Assembly (NCBI GenBank): GCA_044236265.1
Contig: JBIIGV010000013.1
Location: 1 to 40,069, forward strand
Origin: Oligoflexales bacterium
Lineage (GTDB): Bacteria; Bdellovibrionota_B; Oligoflexia; Oligoflexales; RGVZ01
Reading direction: 5' to 3'
Length of the DNA stretch: 40,069 nucleotides
Part shown: positions 15,641-40,069 of the stretch, piece by piece
Numbering within the stretch: the first letter of the stretch is position 1
How the letters are laid out: each line of letters begins with the position of its first letter
Notes under the pieces: model-generated
Seen by the model: only the letters and a program-made list of their open reading frames with translations
Databases searched by the model: none
What the model was told of the DNA's origin: nothing
Made by a program: the position numbers and the translations under genes

Positions 15641-15872
15641 TATTATTTTTTAAATTAATGAATTTATTGAATTTTTTGAGCTCATTTACCCCAATTTCCG
15701 ATGGCGCCCCCCACAAAACATGCCTCTGTAACTCGCGATTCTAGTTACGTCCATAAATCCTCGGTGCCGTCGGGGTGGTAAAAACTCCCTGTAATATTCG
15801 TTAAATAGAAGATAAAAATGTTTAATATGACGTGGTAAAAACTTACTATTATAAAATTATTATTAAAATATA

Positions 15873-28811: not shown

Positions 28812-29720
28812 ATGTTGGCACTATTTCCAGAGTTATCAGCATGCGCCAAAGCCAAAGATATCGAAAAACTTGCGATTCTGGTGCGAACGTATTTTGCCGG
28901 AGCCGACGCGACAAAGGCTCAGTTTGATGTGCTTTCGACCGTTCGACAATTTGGAATTCCGGTTGGGGTCGCTCCGATCAAATACTTTGGTGCTATTGCT
29001 GTGCGCGATGATGGTGGTGATATTCGGGCCAGTATACTGGTGCGAGAGAACCTTGAAGCTAAGCAGCAGCGTTTTATTTTAGCCCATATTTTGGGTCATT
29101 TTTTGTTACAGATCCAACCACGACTAGCGTCCAGTGACTGGCGAAGTTCCGGCTTCAAGGAGTTGATTGACCCCAGCCGCCGCTATGCTGTTGCTGAGGG
29201 GCTAAGTCATTTGTCAGCCGCAGATTTCGCAGCAGAAGATATGGCGGATCGATTTGCTGGTGCCTTGCTTATGCCGTCAGCAATGGTCAAGCGCGCGATG
29301 GAAAAATTGGGTGATGTGGTGAGAGTGGCAGCTTTTTTTGCAGTTGATCTAGATGTTTTGGAGCGTCGATTAGAGGATATTGGGGTTGCTGATCATGCTG
29401 TCGCTGCGCAATCAAAGTTACGATCAGGTGCTAAAGTTGCGACGCCTATTGACGTTCTAAATGAACTCGCCCATAGTGAGGTTCCGCGCGATGTTCCGCC
29501 TGAGCAGCTGATTCGTGATGTCAGTCAGCCGATGGCAGCCATGCCGCGTGCGGTGGCAGCGCATTCATACAGCGATGCTGCACAATCTGATTTATCAACT
29601 GCAGAGGATGCGCCGACCCCCAAGCGGAAGCGAAAATCCGATCCGCGTGGATTGAAAGGCATGGATAGGATCCGAGAGCTGGCACGAAGAATGGACAAAT
29701 TTGGTGACAAGTCAAAGTGA
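28812..29720 (+). CDS. ImmA/IrrE (peptidase M78) family protein with degenerate HExxH
   Basis: 'QRFILAHILGH' and 'AEDMADRFAGALLMP', C-terminal HTH-like VAAFFAVDLDVLERRL. RBS GGAGG. Confidence 0.8.
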   Translation: MLALFPELSACAKAKDIEKLAILVRTYFAGADATKAQFDVLSTVRQFGIPVGVAPIKYFGAIAVRDDGGDIRASILVRENLEAKQQRFILAHILGHFLLQIQPRLASSDWRSSGFKELIDPSRRYAVAEGLSHLSAADFAAEDMADRFAGALLMPSAMVKRAMEKLGDVVRVAAFFAVDLDVLERRLEDIGVADHAVAAQSKLRSGAKVATPIDVLNELAHSEVPRDVPPEQLIRDVSQPMAAMPRAVAAHSYSDAAQSDLSTAEDAPTPKRKRKSDPRGLKGMDRIRELARRMDKFGDKSK

Positions 29721-34785: not shown

Positions 34786-35265
34786 TCAGGAGCCAGACTC
34801 TTCGAGTTGCTGCGCAAGGTAGTTTTGAAGTCCAATATCCTTGATCGTGCTAAGTTGAGTCTCAAGCCAATCGGTGTGTTCCTCTTCGCTTACAAGAATC
34901 TTCTCGAGTAGGTCGCGCGTTCCATGATCACTGGCATCCCAACAAAGCTCGATCGCCTTCTTGAGGCGTGGGATCGCTCTGTATTCAAGTGCAAGATCAC
35001 TTTCTAGTTGCTCTTTTACAGTCTCGCCAATGTTTAACTTATCGAGTTTCTGCAAGTTTGGTAGGCCTTCAAGAAACAGGATGCGCTCTGTCAAAACGTC
35101 AGCGTGTTTCATCTCGTCGATCGATTCTTTGTAAATCTTGTGACCTAATTTCTTGTAGCCCCAGTTCTTGCACATCTTGGCGTGGAGAAAGTATTGGTTG
35201 ATGGCGGTCAACTCGCCGGTAAGAATGTCATTCAACGCTGCAATAACTTTCGCATCACCCTTCAT
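34786..35265 (-). CDS. bfr: Bacterioferritin
   Basis: [25 protein letters not shown] (heme Met), [21 protein letters not shown]. Confidence 0.97.
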
Positions 35266-35368
35266 AAGGTTCGCTCCTTTAAAATGAGAACTACGCAATA
35301 CCCGGAGTGATGCTAACAGACTCGGGCACTAAATGAATCTTAAATTTCATGGTCACCCGTAGTATTGA

Positions 35369-37024
35369 CTAAAAATTATGCGTGCGTTGCACGGGGACAA
35401 GTGTTACCCCGCGGGTCCCCAATTCCTTTAAAATGTCACCCGGGACGTCGTCGGCGCTATACCGAAACCATCTTAGACGAGGTAATGTCAAAATGAACTC
35501 CCAGTCCTTGATTTCGGGATTAGCTGCAGCACTTACGGCCTCCAGGTTTTCTAGACCCTTCAGGGCTTCGATGGAGCGAAGTCGCCGATCATCTAAATTG
35601 ATCTGACGCTTAAGAGCAAGGTCGCGACTTTTCCGGGCGAAGTCGCCGGCGGCCAACAGATCGCGTAAGGTTAGAATGAGTGTTCGGCGATCAGATCCAG
35701 CGGCAGCGCCGAGCTCCGCGATTTTTCGGTAATGAGTTTCGTCGATATTTTTGAGTTGAGTTTTTGCGCCAAATACCTGCATTTTCTTTGCAAGTCGCGA
35801 AAGGCTTTGGATGCTTGAAATGGCATTATTGCGCACATCAAGAATGTTCAAATGATCCAGTTGTTCTACACCCCGCATCGACCGTAATACGTTATCTGTG
35901 GCAATGAGTGACGTGAGCTGCTTGGCGTGCCGCAGCCAAGCAAGTTGATGGAGGTTTCGGTGTGACAGATCTAACGTCGTTGCGTTTTCTAAAAACTCTT
36001 TCAGCTTCATGCACTGATCTTTTGATATGTCAGCAGGGATATTTGCCACATCGAAAAGTTGCATCAGATCGTGGCGCGAGGCCTCTGTAAGATGGGGGCT
36101 TTGGCAGGCGTCAAGAAAGCTATTGTCCATCACAATGGTGTCATCATCAGTGGTAGCTGCTTGGGCTGTTTCACGAACGCAGAAGTCCGCTAGCACTGGA
36201 TCATTGATCCTGTATTTCGCGGTCGAGCGCAGCCAGCAGAGGGACTCAGTGGCAAGGCCATAAGCTCCTGCCTCATAGTTGCTGGCACATGGCATTGGGC
36301 CTCGCGATGTGACGCCTAATAGAATCAGTTTTCTTCCAGAATCTTTTTCCAATGCAACTTCAGCAAATGCCGGACCACCGCTATCACCTGAGCATGCGTC
36401 GACATCTTGATTGCCAGCATAGAGCTCAGCGCCTGTTCTAAATTTGATGGGTGTTTTTCCCTGTAACCGCATGCCGATTTTGGGTTCTTCGCCGTTGGTA
36501 GGTAAGGACAAAGATGAAAACCCGTAACCTGCGATGATGACAGATTTGATTGCATTTAATAGCGAGTTTGCGTGGGTGCGAGTCTGCGGTAGCTGAATGG
36601 GACTGATTCCTGGCACGGGTCGAGTTAGTTTAATCCAGCCAAAATCATAAGCGCCTCTGTAGTCAGACCAAAACTTAGGATGAATCGCCGCGCGTTCAAT
36701 GTCGTAAGTATTTTCAGTGGTCCGAGGTGTTGTTGTGGCGCCGGTAACAATTTTCAATGACGCTAAGGTCGTCGATTGCGGTCGGGTTGCCTTTTCCAGG
36801 CAGTGGGCTGCAGTCAAAACAAGGTCATCAGCAATTAAGGTCCCGGTGCAAATCGTTAGCTCATCACGAACAATGGCAACGACGGCATCCAATTGGCGAT
36901 CATTGGAAGGGGAGCCTCCAATAATTTTTAAAGTCGATGGATCGGTTAAGCGAGCTTGGCCGCAGCCGCACAAAAAGAAGACTATATTTAAGGTGATTTT
37001 AATGATCTGAGGGTGCCTACGCAT
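35369..37024 (-). CDS. Trypsin-like (S1) serine protease lipoprotein with C-terminal leucine-rich repeats
   Basis: Lipobox-like FLCGC, IIGG, LTAAHC, YDFG, GDSGGP, and LRRs such as LDLSHRNL and LDVRNNAISSI. Confidence 0.88.
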   Translation of the reverse strand: MRRHPQIIKITLNIVFFLCGCGQARLTDPSTLKIIGGSPSNDRQLDAVVAIVRDELTICTGTLIADDLVLTAAHCLEKATRPQSTTLASLKIVTGATTTPRTTENTYDIERAAIHPKFWSDYRGAYDFGWIKLTRPVPGISPIQLPQTRTHANSLLNAIKSVIIAGYGFSSLSLPTNGEEPKIGMRLQGKTPIKFRTGAELYAGNQDVDACSGDSGGPAFAEVALEKDSGRKLILLGVTSRGPMPCASNYEAGAYGLATESLCWLRSTAKYRINDPVLADFCVRETAQAATTDDDTIVMDNSFLDACQSPHLTEASRHDLMQLFDVANIPADISKDQCMKLKEFLENATTLDLSHRNLHQLAWLRHAKQLTSLIATDNVLRSMRGVEQLDHLNILDVRNNAISSIQSLSRLAKKMQVFGAKTQLKNIDETHYRKIAELGAAAGSDRRTLILTLRDLLAAGDFARKSRDLALKRQINLDDRRLRSIEALKGLENLEAVSAAANPEIKDWEFILTLPRLRWFRYSADDVPGDILKELGTRGVTLVPVQRTHNF

Positions 37025-37050
37025 TAGGCAGGATTAACAGAACTATTACA

Positions 37051-37251
37051 TCAGCTGCAAGGATTAATCCGGTGAGCTGATAATGATGGTTTGGCGGACT
37101 CTTTCTTGACGAGATCCCGGAGGTCGTTGGCGCATGCGCCGCAGCAGGTACTGGCTTCGCAGGACTGAACGATTTGCTTTAGCGTCTGCCCGGATTGGGC
37201 CATTTCCTTGACCTTGCGGTCTGAGACACCTTTACAGAGGCACAGAATCAT
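37051..37251 (-). CDS. bfd: Bacterioferritin-associated [2Fe-2S] ferredoxin
   Basis: MILCLCKGVSD...STCCGAC (CxC...CxxC). Start ATG 37251 after GGGAG. Confidence 0.9.
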   Translation of the reverse strand: MILCLCKGVSDRKVKEMAQSGQTLKQIVQSCEASTCCGACANDLRDLVKKESAKPSLSAHRINPCS

Positions 37252-37307
37252 GGGTTGAGCTCCCGATTTGGTATTCAACAAGCGATCGTGTGCTCCAAAT
37301 ATGTCAA

Positions 37308-37328
37308 AAATGAGAGTCATTCTCAATT
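37308..37328. promoter_or_regulatory. Fur-box-like operator upstream of bfd
   Basis: AAA-TGAGAGT-C-ATTCTCA-ATT, a 7-1-7 dyad resembling TGATAAT-n-ATTATCA, about 60 bp upstream of bfd. Confidence 0.65.
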
Positions 37329-37421
37329 AAATTTTTCAGAGTTTTGCACAAGTTTAATTGAGCAGTCTAAGAGCTTGAAATTATTTGATTTTATAGGATT
37401 CGGCCCTATTCGCTGAACACG

Positions 37422-37814
37422 TCAGAGCGCGTTCTCGACCTCTTCGGGGCTGCAGTAGGGAAGGCGACACCCGGTAGGAATCCGTCGATTGACCATCTCG
37501 GAAATAGTTGCTGGAGAGTGACCTTCGCTAAACAGACCTTTCGCAACTCGCGAAAAAAGGGCTTCAACTTCTGCGCTCAGATCCTGGTATGAATTGGTAT
37601 CCATGCGAGACGCCATTTTTGCGAGGTCTTCAAGCTGAGCTGTCGTCCACTTGGTTTCACCGCCAACCTCCATCGGGTTTTTGATGGTTCCAGATTCAAC
37701 CTCAAGAAGCATTATTTTCTGAATCATATCGGACGCCCAATCGGGGCATGCGTCCTGCGGAGTCGCAGTTAAGGATGACTGGGTGTCCATGTTGGTCTCA
37801 AATGTTGTTTCCAC
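37422..37814 (-). CDS. Hypothetical protein
   Basis: 130-aa acidic helical ORF filling the gap between bfd and GST. Start uncertain. Confidence 0.55.
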   Translation of the reverse strand: METTFETNMDTQSSLTATPQDACPDWASDMIQKIMLLEVESGTIKNPMEVGGETKWTTAQLEDLAKMASRMDTNSYQDLSAEVEALFSRVAKGLFSEGHSPATISEMVNRRIPTGCRLPYCSPEEVENAL

Positions 37815-38039
37815 GGAGATACCGCCTTGATCGTTTGTTTCATGAAATCAATAGAATGCACCGGGGTTTCTACCATTTTTATAGCGTTGCGCAAGCTTTT
37901 ATCACCATGGGCTTCACACCCCCGAGATCGCAGCGAAAAATCAGACTTTGTAACAGTGAAATTCGGTTTACCAGGGACCTGGCGGGTCTTAAACTCACGG
38001 GTGGTGCTACTTGGCCCCCAATGACAAAGGTAACCTGGC

Positions 38040-38663
38040 ATGCTTCATTTTTTTCATCATCCACAGTCTCCCTACAGTCGTAAGATTTTCTTTCTGCTTG
38101 AAGAAGCAGGCCATCCCTATGACCTACGTACGGTCTCGCTTGAGAAAAAGGAGCAGAAGGACTCAAGCTATTTGGTCCTGAATCCTGCAGGCCGCGTTCC
38201 TGCAATCAAGGACGGAGATTTTGCGTTGTCTGAATCAAATGCGATTTTGCGCTATCTCACCCGAAAGTATCAGCTCCATCAATTCTATCCGACAGCAGTC
38301 GAAGAGCAGGCGCAGGTAGATATGTGGTGGGACTTTTGCTCCAATCACATCAACCGACCTCTCATCGACCTAGCGTGGAATAAAATCATGGCTCCCCTTT
38401 ATGGCGGTAAGCCCGATGCAGCAGTCATTGCCAAGGCAGAGAAAAATCTTGAACGTGATTTGCCCGTTCTCGAAAAACAGCTTCAAGGTCGCAACTATCT
38501 ATTGACGGCAAATCTTTCACTGGCTGATATCAATCTCATGCCGTTTGCCGTGTACGCCAAAGATGTCATCCGTCTTGATGACTTCCCTGCGTTTAAAGCA
38601 TGGATCAACAGGGTTGAGGAGCGTCAGGCGTGGAAAAATGTCGTGTCCTATAGTGGCCACTGA
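38040..38663 (+). CDS. Glutathione S-transferase family protein
   Basis: SPYSRK, NPAGRVPAI, LSESNAILRYL, SLADI. Confidence 0.93.
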   Translation: MLHFFHHPQSPYSRKIFFLLEEAGHPYDLRTVSLEKKEQKDSSYLVLNPAGRVPAIKDGDFALSESNAILRYLTRKYQLHQFYPTAVEEQAQVDMWWDFCSNHINRPLIDLAWNKIMAPLYGGKPDAAVIAKAEKNLERDLPVLEKQLQGRNYLLTANLSLADINLMPFAVYAKDVIRLDDFPAFKAWINRVEERQAWKNVVSYSGH

Positions 38664-38801
38664 TGGTTGTAAATAATTTTGAACTACGCGTCTTGTGACT
38701 AAGGCGCGGGCTGTGCTCGAACATACAAGATCATCACTGCGGACAGTGCAAAAAAGACACCGTCCACTGGTCTAAAGAGCAGTGAAAATTTTTGCGCGAA
38801 A
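38399..38801 (+). repeat. Direct repeat copy 1 (GST 3' half plus downstream DNA)
   Basis: Aligns by eye to 39666-40069 with 13 substitutions and one 1-bp indel. The true right end is unknown because copy 2 is cut by the window edge. Confidence 0.97.
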
Positions 38802-38957
38802 ATGGAATGATGGCTTTTGAGTCTTTGATCTTCAGTCAACGGGATTGTGGAGAGCTTTTAATTCAAAGCAACTCGGGGCAAGATTAGTAATCCCTATAAA
38901 TTGACTATCTATAGCAGGCTAAATAATCAGTAGTTACAAGTTCTTGTGGTATTTTTC

Positions 38958-38984
38958 TCAAGTTTATTGCTTGGAAGCCGTACA
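38958..38984 (+). promoter_or_regulatory. sigma28-like promoter
   Basis: TCAAGTTT-N11-GCCGTACA upstream of the Cys-rich gene. Confidence 0.45.
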
Positions 38985-39071
38985 GTTGATGAGTCGAGGT
39001 CTGAGGGTCCAGCTTCGATTGTGACTCGACGGACCCGGGTGGAACACATTCTGTATTTTGGGAGGCCGGGA

Positions 39072-39563
39072 ATGAATTTAAATTTATTTTGGAGATTGTG
39101 TCTAGTTGTCGTTGGGGTCTTAATTCCCAATCTTCGCAACGCAGAGGCTGGTACTCCTCCCTATCAAAACTCCGGGATGGTTTGCGTCTGTCAATGTAAT
39201 GCAGGAATGAGCGGTTATTTGTGCCCCGTTGAATGGGACGCAAAACTTGTTGTGACCAGTCCACTCGGGTGTGACAGTGGTGGAATTATTGCGCCACAGT
39301 GTAAATATCTTCGAACATGTCCTTCATCATTCAACTTCCCAGCACCGTCCGACGGCAACTGCAGTAGGCTTAGTGGAATCACTTGTGCAGGGATCAAGCA
39401 TCCCCAATCCCCAGGAAGTGCCACTCAGGGAATCACCGAGTGTTCAGGAGGGCCTGTTTTAGTTCCGAATCAACCTTCTCCGCCGTCGCTTCCTACATCG
39501 TCAAACCCTCCATTTACGATGCCGACAACAGCCCCAAACCCATGGATGCCAAAACAAAAATGA
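39072..39563 (+). CDS. Cys-rich secreted protein with Pro-rich tail (hypothetical, 163 aa)
   Basis: GGAGG RBS at 39061, signal peptide ending AEA, 10 Cys in the mature part, P/S/T-rich C-terminus. Confidence 0.72.
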   Translation: MNLNLFWRLCLVVVGVLIPNLRNAEAGTPPYQNSGMVCVCQCNAGMSGYLCPVEWDAKLVVTSPLGCDSGGIIAPQCKYLRTCPSSFNFPAPSDGNCSRLSGITCAGIKHPQSPGSATQGITECSGGPVLVPNQPSPPSLPTSSNPPFTMPTTAPNPWMPKQK

Positions 39564-39583
39564 ATTGACTGATAAATTGGATA

Positions 39584-39658
39584 AATCGAGGCCACATAAC
39601 TGGATCACTATTGATGATTCAGTCCAATCAAAAGATATCCAGTTATCTGGCCTAGATT
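39584..39658. repeat. Long imperfect inverted repeat (hairpin)
   Basis: AATCGAGGCCACATAACTGGAT (39584-39605) and ATCCAGTTATCTGGCCTAGATT (39637-39658) pair at 20 of 22 positions. Inner TGATT/AATCA stem. Confidence 0.9.
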
Positions 39659-39665
39659 AGTACCG

Positions 39666-40069
39666 TTATGGCGGTAAGCACCGATGCAGCAGTCATTGCC
39701 AAGGCAGAGAAAAATCTTGAACGTGATTTGCCCGTTCTCGAAAAACAACTTCAAGGTCGCAACTATCTAGTGACGGCAAATCTTTCACTGGCTGATATCA
39801 ATCTCATGCCTTTTGCCATCTACGCCAAAGATGTCATCCGTCTTGATGACTTCCCTGCGTTTAAAGCATGGATCAACAGGGTCGAGGAGCGTCAAGCATG
39901 GAAAAATGTCGTGGCCTATAGTGGCCACTGATGGTTGCAAATGATTTTGAACTACGCGTCTTGTGACTAAGGCGCGGGCTGTGCTCGAACATACAAGATC
40001 ATCACTGCGGATAGAGCAAAAAAGACACCGTCCACTGGTCTAAAGAGCAGTGAAAATTTTTGCGCGAAA
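39666..40069 (+). repeat. Direct repeat copy 2, running to the window end
   Basis: Offset of 1267-1268 bp from copy 1. Confidence 0.97.
39668..39931 (+). pseudogene. 5'-truncated GST duplicate (C-terminal helices only)
   Basis: 87-aa ORF identical to the GST C-terminus except the first 5 residues and L>V, V>I, S>A. No N-terminal thioredoxin-like domain and no clear RBS. Confidence 0.8.

Follow-up and report, generated by a model that had tools for sequence, protein, structure and literature searches.

The element e14 at icd is an example of a gene-restoring integrative island. A different style of gene capture has been described for ISCR1: in the available text of PMC7707992 and PMC3575428, complex class 1 integrons are laid out as 3'-CS, ISCR1, cargo and partial 3'-CS, and, as far as the text of PMC7707992 at hand goes, ISCR1 circles re-enter by homologous recombination at the duplicated anchor. 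According to the accessible part of PMC13181058, elements of the IS91 family form circles, carry adjacent DNA along when termination fails and make no target duplication. Capture of the ISCR type is known mostly from clinical resistance regions. Here we analyse a locus of an Oligoflexales bacterium at which IS91/ISCR-family DNA adjoins duplicated gene ends. A literature search, with most subscription journals outside it, found neither this locus nor IS91 in Oligoflexales described.

The stretch of DNA analysed (40,069 nucleotides, hereafter the window) is the complete contig C145 of an assembly of 3.25 Mb in 234 contigs, 89% complete (G000). Its only long direct repeat had been pointed out in an earlier note made from the sequence: the stretch 38399-38801 is repeated at 39666-40069, and our alignment confirmed that the two differ by 13 substitutions (9 within coding sequence, 4 downstream) and an A inserted at 39680. 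The repeat can be extended to 38396/39663 with one further difference, and its copies, J1 and J2 (Table 1), enclose 864 bp (38802-39665). The end of the contig coincides exactly with the loss of near-identity between them. Codon comparison bore out the description of the nine coding changes, of which five are synonymous and the rest are L/V, V/I and S/A exchanges (synonymous share 5/9 against a neutral 0.25, P ~0.05). The same note had read this arrangement as a discrete cassette of ~1.27 kb; we call the stretch from J1 to the palindrome before J2 the 1.27-kb unit.

Table 1. Features at the distal end of the window
Feature	Position	Strand	Evidence
Glutathione S-transferase (GST), intact, 207 aa	38040..38663	+	Pfam GST_N E 5e-15, GST_C E 2e-11
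Junction copy J1: final 268 bp of GST, short intergenic stretch, antisense MFS 3' fragment	38396..38801	+	96.3% to J2 (407 columns); 87-94% to copies on C39 and C195
MFS_2 transporter 3' fragment, last 36 codons, one premature stop	38684..38797	-	tblastn 83%/36 aa; Pfam MFS_2; codon comparison
IS91/ISCR-family HUH transposase internal remnant, 61 bp	38796..38856	+	nhmmer E 6e-7, profile of 5 element copies; 80% to G001 and G002 copies
Spacer, ribosome-binding motif at 39060-39065	38857..39071	.	sequence
Cargo gene, 163 aa, likely signal peptide, ten conserved cysteines, Pro-rich tail	39072..39563	+	homologs P0013, P0015
REPIN-like palindrome, degenerate member of a dispersed family	39580..39662	.	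fold z -5.0/-7.1 vs shuffles
Junction copy J2: displaced GST 3' end and MFS fragment	39663..40069	+	repeat comparison; loose end behind 38807 in X1, X2

Our results show that the repeat is the junction of two convergent genes, GST and MFS_2, and not a GST 3' end alone. The 138 bp of downstream DNA that the earlier note had seen in the repeat is indeed repeated, but its identity had to be corrected: it is the antisense 3' end of the MFS gene, running into an IS91-family remnant with which it has at most 4 bases in common at the joint. An intact MFS_2 gene lies elsewhere in the genome (G000:C195:7922-9331). A search of Rfam with 37000-40069 gave no match.

A two-strain assembly chimera, which we regard as extremely improbable, would account for the window stopping inside the repeat and for the fact that, among the contigs of the public runs compared, no one piece covers both J1 and J2. 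Public DNA runs containing the stretch are mainly lake metagenomes (no RNA dataset is listed), and contigs from 4 of the 24 listed runs were compared against 36500-40069. The joint between J1 and the spacer is bridged by X4 (record 22) and X6 (record 29), and the joint between the cargo and J2 by X1, X2 and X4 (records 4, 15 and 24). Moreover, loose contig ends in these runs reproduce the flanks of two further junction copies (J3 and J4, see below), and a frameshifted GST product characteristic of J2 is found in three variants on 7 contigs from three sources. This demonstrates that the repeat structure is not a chimera of two strains. The cargo of the window was the only cargo seen, in 4/4 runs; no empty allele, other cargo or circle was seen in these runs, whose contigs cannot prove absence. 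Mobility of the 1.27-kb unit within the species is unsupported by the contigs of the 4 runs, and the presence of the frameshifted copy on 7 contigs together with a single cargo in 4/4 runs suggests an old, shared structure. A joint in X1 that skips from 38779 to 39885 is not taken for an empty allele; in our reading it follows the route from J3 to J4 that carries the photolyase.

The inserted A at 39680 shifts the frame of J2 by +1 and creates an 87-aa ORF (39668-39931). The GST cluster has 9 members, namely 6 full-length proteins and the 3 variants of this product. Residues of copy 2 also occur in the 5 other full-length GST alleles (R120 in 5, V155 in 3, I171 in 1 and A203 in 3), and the 9 members display all four possible pairings of residues 155 and 171. 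The copies therefore exchange sequence or descend from segregating alleles, although the allele mosaics among junction copies may partly come from assembly collapse of repeats. The earlier suggestion of functional allele ends from different strains stands insofar as the copies differ like functional alleles and copy-2 residues are found in full-length GSTs from other assemblies.

Further copies, as the earlier note had anticipated, are present on other contigs with other cargo. The assembly holds four junction copies: J1 and J2 in the window, J3 at C39:1164-1332 and J4 at C195:9221-9404. The ends of C39 and C195 overlap and yield the order J3, photolyase gene, J4, intact MFS, and a public contig of 1922 bp (record 6) links two junction copies, as expected across the photolyase. 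J3 and J4 each retain just ~50 bp of GST, against 265 bp in J2, which starts 215 bp farther upstream. The first bases of J3 and J4 agree to ~5 bp and lie ~50 bp ahead of the stop codon of GST, with different left neighbours, an observation that the model proposed below leaves unexplained. Pairwise, J1 to J3 differ at 7-10 of 164 bases, whereas J4 is 19-23 bases away from each of them. Its GST portion is decayed (1 synonymous and 6 other changes relative to J1), and damage in the MFS part is common to J1-J3. Taken together, the decay of J4, the damage shared by J1-J3 and the divergence indicate that the duplication of J4 is the oldest and that of J1/J2 the youngest.

We consider it quite likely that the contigs follow one another as C145-gap-C77-gap-C39-C195 in an island of ~14 kb, in which the overlap establishes the C39-C195 join and only that one. 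C77 starts with the next part of the transposase, ~120 bp further on, and propeller repeats at its far end would be compatible with the surface-protein gene that breaks off where C39 ends. No recombinase or integrase was recognised in C145, C77, C39 and C195, that is, in the island with its gaps. Elsewhere G000 has a single PF00589 match, an Xer-like tyrosine recombinase on C69, and PF07508 matches on C86 and C15, the former a large serine recombinase; it also encodes recA and a ComEC-family gene.

A check for an empty site succeeded at the level of the genus, but within the species the 4 runs offered neither an empty allele nor another cargo. In the congener with the most similar GST (G012, 78%), a single empty junction is found in the order trypsin-bfd-130aa-GST facing MFS-DUF1295-amine oxidase. 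An orthologous GST is present in 7 of the 12 other genomes of the genus, the duplicated end in none of the loci fetched, and congeners differ in the region behind GST. A metagenome scan with GST returned 4 close loci of 71, none with an adjacent MFS or a duplicated end, and a scan with a 21-base junction pattern gave 0 matches (near-identical records are possibly outside the scan).

The remnant behind J1 derives from an IS91/ISCR element. Full copies in G001 and G002 (~2.07 kb in the latter) encode a Y2 HUH transposase with an IS91 zinc-binding domain, exceeding the Pfam cut-offs of Y2_Tnp (PF04986) and Zn_Tnp_IS91 (PF14319), and have a conserved oriIS end downstream of the transposase gene beside the target tetranucleotide, without inverted repeats. 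Among 36 ori ends examined, CGCC follows in 15 and other tetramers in 8, and 13 have no clear end motif. The best NCBIfam match of the transposase is to ISCR clade Ia (E 2.5e-58), far below its cut-off, and it reached neither the ISCR nor the IS91 equivalog cut-off. Matches to the element were found in 13/13 genomes of the genus and, outside the genus, in 0/81 genomes from the order (E<=1e-8), and the closest relatives of the transposase among named records are mostly from Oligoflexales. G000 itself holds 12 remnants totalling 2.8 kb, and no intact transposase gene was found in its 89% complete assembly.

A 170-bp piece from earlier in the transposase gene lies left of J3; nine bases left of J3 match positions 1362-1370 of the element, and the right joint of J1 falls at ~1394, which places the two joints ~25 bp apart. 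That they are reciprocal would depend on this nine-base match and on the contig order proposed above. Both here and at a second locus described below (lysC in G006), the order of the remnants is permuted, with the 3' half following the left copy and the 5' half preceding the right one, the order to be expected from opening a circle within the transposase gene. The joints show short stretches of shared bases. No IS91 DNA was found at the left boundary of J2, the right boundary of J3 or the left boundary of J4.

Contigs of runs X1 and X2 further reveal a second exit beyond 38807 that is missing from the assembly, where a junction copy is followed, at the point at which J2 ends, by a second, different transposase allele. 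This allele covers the same part of the transposase as the remnant behind J1, its joint falls on the identical base, and most likely it follows J2. About a quarter of 30 bases differ between the transposase pieces behind J1 and in the second exit, mostly at third codon positions. This contrasts with the 3.5% divergence of J1 and J2 and is not explained by the model.

Comparison of G000 with itself listed 30 direct repeats on the same contig, and in 3 of them the duplicated part is a 3' end from a chromosomal gene. Besides GST, the genes are topB (C121; 223 bp at 91%, up to the stop codon) and, at 83%, a gene on C216 that resembles an oxidoreductase, topB being named by profile match and the gene on C216 by eye. 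The displaced topB copy adjoins an IS91 remnant; no such remnant was found at the C216 duplication. The duplication is present in 0/5 congener topB loci, and in G012 an IS91 remnant lies behind topB with no duplication. We also examined 40 stretches around IS91 matches, chosen for flank length from 115, and 20 control stretches. Direct repeats of any kind occurred in 6/40 and 2/20, respectively, one of the controls having a 70-bp repeat behind a tRNA-like gene. The layout seen at GST was found in 1/40 of the IS91-flanking congener loci and is thus a rare outcome. At this locus, lysC in G006, a 251-bp junction with a convergent gene is duplicated (95%) and remnants stand at both inner ends, with an ori end and an 8-bp microhomology; the cargo is an Mg P-type ATPase. 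In the sister genome G004, the lysC junction is empty. Over GST, topB and lysC, 24 of 34 coding differences are synonymous (P 3e-4 against a rough expectation of 0.40), which is more than expected for one copy decaying from birth.

These data bear on a generic explanation that we hold to be somewhat unlikely, in which a variable site gains DNA by additive recombination. Incoming pieces from related strains would be anchored by their homology to GST, with an illegitimate joint at the far end (homology-facilitated illegitimate recombination, or Campbell entry of chance circles), and IS91 scraps and REPIN would be bystanders, no more than dispensable DNA where joints survive. The C216 duplication and 6 of the 9 inner boundaries lack IS91 DNA, the region behind GST is variable among congeners, the recA and ComEC-family genes are present, and allele-like divergence is compatible with any donor model; a comparable model has been proposed for Vibrio T6SS immunity arrays in the available text of PMC5361080. 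IS91 remnants may therefore simply mark variable regions, as the C216 duplication without a remnant and the G012 topB remnant without a duplication would have it. Against this, a remnant adjoins 3/9 inner boundaries, an abutment that, in a post hoc comparison, is unlikely with respect to the genome (P 8e-8) and even to the local background of 5-kb remnant neighbourhoods (P 0.009). Bystanders would likewise not be expected to give permuted remnants at both inner ends of two loci, nor joints ~25 bp apart at GST.

The explanation we favour, and hold to be on balance the probable one, is that cargo-bearing IS91/ISCR DNA entered by recombination, duplicating the junction, and that later modules were stacked through recombination between divergent alleles. 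The window would be the proximal end of an island grown stepwise at the GST/MFS junction, each step adding one junction copy. At the outset, rolling-circle read-through by an IS91/ISCR element would give a cargo-bearing circle or a longer-than-unit product. The element DNA would then join the chromosome inside the transposase gene and not at its ends, with duplication of ~185 bp of the junction, either through two microhomology joints or through capture of the junction followed by a RecA crossover, two routes that are indistinguishable here. Junction copies would subsequently serve as homology handles, by which modules from other strains are inserted before older ones, and GST would remain intact because each incoming copy supplies a working 3' end. 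The 1.27-kb unit (junction copy, 61-bp remnant, Cys-rich gene and REPIN) would accordingly be a secondary, non-autonomous module with the REPIN-like palindrome as its far boundary, mobile or collapsible only through RecA recombination between the 400-bp repeats.

The canonical two-step model of ISCR1 makes a related prediction: an element lacking terIS is fused to the junction, moves by rolling circle beside a cargo and forms a second-round circle that returns by homologous recombination. We consider this course improbable. Two observations do fit the model as set out in the accessible text of PMC7707992, namely the arrangement junction-element-ori-cargo-partial junction at lysC and left ends that vary, and the ISCR clade Ia profile is the nearest to the transposase. 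However, every joint lies within the transposase gene, the apparent target CGCC is at the start of none of the displaced copies, the 1.27-kb unit is devoid of an ori end, and a second remnant precedes the right copy at two loci. Returning to entry by recombination inside the transposase gene, one can extend it to the whole genus: IS91/ISCR circles would routinely take a short piece of a host junction into the transposase gene as a homing handle, allowing integrase-free, gene-sparing addition of cargo after core genes (at GST, topB and lysC), in arrays extended by other strains and still active in lake populations. This broader reading we regard as unlikely.

Within the 1.27-kb unit, the Cys-rich gene noted earlier proved to be a real ORF. 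Its homologs P0013 (54% identity) and P0015 (32%) retain ten cysteines that are invariant in a three-way alignment, and its likely signal peptide was judged by eye. No Pfam family matched the product, a search of 90% clusters found nothing beyond the cargo itself, and the best score of an Atlas search was an uninformative 0.76. A survey of 94 genomes of the order found the gene in 2; in G002 the homolog lies in a different context without the repeat, and an IS91-end match there is sub-threshold only. P0014 and P0016 were dropped as homologs, being low-complexity or chance matches. The unit is a decayed module, and its cargo represents a small new Cys-rich protein family. A profile search of the spacer (38857-39071) detected no ori end. 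The promoter-like motif proposed for the enclosed stretch did not hold up: no site was called on the + strand, and the 1 site obtained against 2.1 expected is not above chance. Longer decayed IS91 homology across the spacer was hinted at by pairwise alignment and is unsupported by the profile search.

The hairpin described in the earlier note is real, but it belongs to a dispersed repeat family, with 10 near-full copies at E<=1.2e-6 among 15 matches, 8 of the copies being the seeds. The end motif of the palindrome also lies beside a RAYT-like Y1_Tnp gene on C88, on one side, the other side being the contig end; the sole NCBIfam match of this gene is to REP-associated transposase, at 69.8 bits with a cut-off of 80. 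REP elements are capable of forming duplication join points. The core consensus of attC sites is RYYYAAC/GTTRRRY. The hairpin was rejected as an attC site, given that its arms deviate from both cores and the family copies are near-perfect palindromes.

A discrete, non-autonomous cassette that integrates site-specifically in GST with a recombinase supplied in trans appears very unlikely to us. J3 and J4 do start almost at the same position, as displaced fragments of one att site would, and the genome does have the large serine recombinase on C86 and the Xer-like tyrosine recombinase. But J2, the copy that bounds the 1.27-kb unit, begins far upstream of them, no core is common to the GST, topB and lysC joints, the assembled island yielded no recognisable recombinase gene, and the hairpin is not attC. 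The earlier reading of a cassette with GST as its landing site is thus not supported: left boundaries vary, the same layout recurs at topB and lysC, and no att core, ori end or recombinase was found. The search for HUH enzymes and recombinases that it had called for did recover HUH remnants, but no recombinase in the 1.27-kb unit.

The three loci described here, all from one freshwater genus of Oligoflexales, suggest that elements related to those of clinical resistance regions also build variable islands behind ordinary genes. Duplications of 160-400 bp are left here, although transposition of IS91 makes no target duplication according to the part of PMC13181058 available. If joints inside the transposase gene were the rule, they would point to a transposase-independent, testable fate of rolling-circle intermediates. 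Complete genomes can readily be searched for the signature, in which a gene 3' end and its repeat enclose the cargo with an IS91 scrap on either side.

Each of the known systems resembles the locus in part. Gene-restoring islands and tandem arrays, in the portion of PMC4383910 available, also have a restored target on one side and a displaced 3' fragment on the other, with tandem stacking; here, in contrast, no integrase was recognised, crossover positions vary (the 215-bp offset of J2 from J3 and J4 is at odds with all displaced fragments coming from one att core), and the duplicate spans two convergent 3' ends. Integron cassettes would require attC cores and an integron integrase, and the only tyrosine recombinase found is Xer-like. 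The Vibrio T6SS/Rhs displacement arrays share proximal growth, displacement of older modules and 3' remnants that mark the events; as described in the accessible text of PMC5361080, their displaced ends are non-homologous toxin domains with immunity genes, whereas those at GST, whose cargo is unrelated, all copy one enzyme/transporter junction and share 87-96% identity. Unconventional circularizable structures, in the available text of PMC7843796, likewise have long direct repeats containing gene parts around one cargo gene and no recombinase of their own, as do the 407-bp repeats here around an ORF without a Pfam family, and by analogy the 1.27-kb unit could be excised by recombination between its repeats. 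The repeats of those structures are nevertheless at least 99% identical, as compared with 96% here, where one copy is frameshifted.

The closest likeness is to ISCR1 complex integrons as the available text on them describes them: an IS91-like element is joined to a conserved stretch, the cargo is flanked by partial copies of this anchor, in the 1.27-kb unit as well, and stacking proceeds by homologous recombination of circles. Unlike in those integrons, the anchor lies in the chromosome of an Oligoflexales bacterium, where two convergent genes of housekeeping type meet, and the transposase is represented by short, internal, permuted pieces with joints inside its gene. Instead of an intact transposase fused to the anchor, 61 bp follow J1; no oriIS separates element from cargo in the unit, one being present at G006 lysC; and CGCC as a terIS-like start is seen in 0/5 displaced copies. 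The 1.27-kb unit works like an ISCR1 complex integron and is not a member of that class. The transposase fragments at the joints indicate a known style of gene capture and not a new cassette system.

Duplicated gene ends accompanied by remnants of an IS91/ISCR-family HUH transposase element (IS91) were found outside the window as well, both in the Oligoflexales assembly that holds it (G000) and in the congener genome G006 (see table). The topB duplication encloses three genes, one of them ATPase-like, and the displaced topB copy directly adjoins an IS91 remnant. In G006, the cargo enclosed by the duplicated lysC junction is a Mg P-type ATPase and both inner ends of the duplication carry IS91 remnants, while the lysC site of the sister genome G004 is empty. 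At the duplicated 3′ end of an oxidoreductase-like gene on contig C216 of G000 no IS91 remnant was found; this duplicate is preceded by an apparent second copy, diverged in sequence, of the block of three genes upstream.

Coordinates of the features in the window, in other contigs of G000 and in the congeners G006 and G002 (L numbers label fetched stretches)
Feature	Location	Details
topB 3′ end duplication	G000:C121:32834-38897 (L162)	repeat 223 bp, 91%
lysC/convergent-gene junction duplication	L120:5952-11971 (G006:C2)	repeat 251 bp
Oxidoreductase-like gene, 3′ end duplicated	G000:C216:15149-22734 (L163)	83%
Mini-island	L143:2780-3848 (G002:C2)	~930 bp; 70-bp direct repeat
Second intergenic repeat family	G000:C123:6544-9988	~70 bp, three copies
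Large serine recombinase	G000:C86:516-2258 (L175)	580 aa
Open frame, internal repeats	G000:C202:33713-79186	>15,000 codons
Two 22-bp direct repeats	window 15775-15853	57 bp apart, 82% alike
IrrE-like (Peptidase_M78) protein	window 28812-29720	302 aa
Bacterioferritin, trypsin-LRR and bfd ferredoxin genes	window 34786-37326	

In G002, an 8.6-kb stretch of contig C286 (L027) contains the IS91-family element three times, two of the copies being inverted and 87% alike. The direct repeat of the G002 mini-island begins directly behind a tRNA-like gene, and two small genes are enclosed. Back in G000, the region holding the second repeat family also has a 102-bp duplicate of a small gene's 5′ end, and the small gene pair adjoining the serine recombinase looks by eye like a toxin-antitoxin module.

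Within the window, the 22-bp repeats are probably due to chance or operator-like, and the C-terminal part of the IrrE-like protein is long and of low complexity. The trypsin-LRR gene lies between the bacterioferritin and bfd genes; the trypsin gene adjoins bfd in the congener G012 and in stretch L029 too, and was not found beside bfd in other congener loci.

Shared insertion-sequence-like ends are the break points of G000 contigs (the right end of C88, and ends of C16, C9, C207, C67, C169, C2 and C168). Several of them are followed by the end motif of the dispersed palindrome family, which suggests an insertion sequence that uses these repeats as its target.
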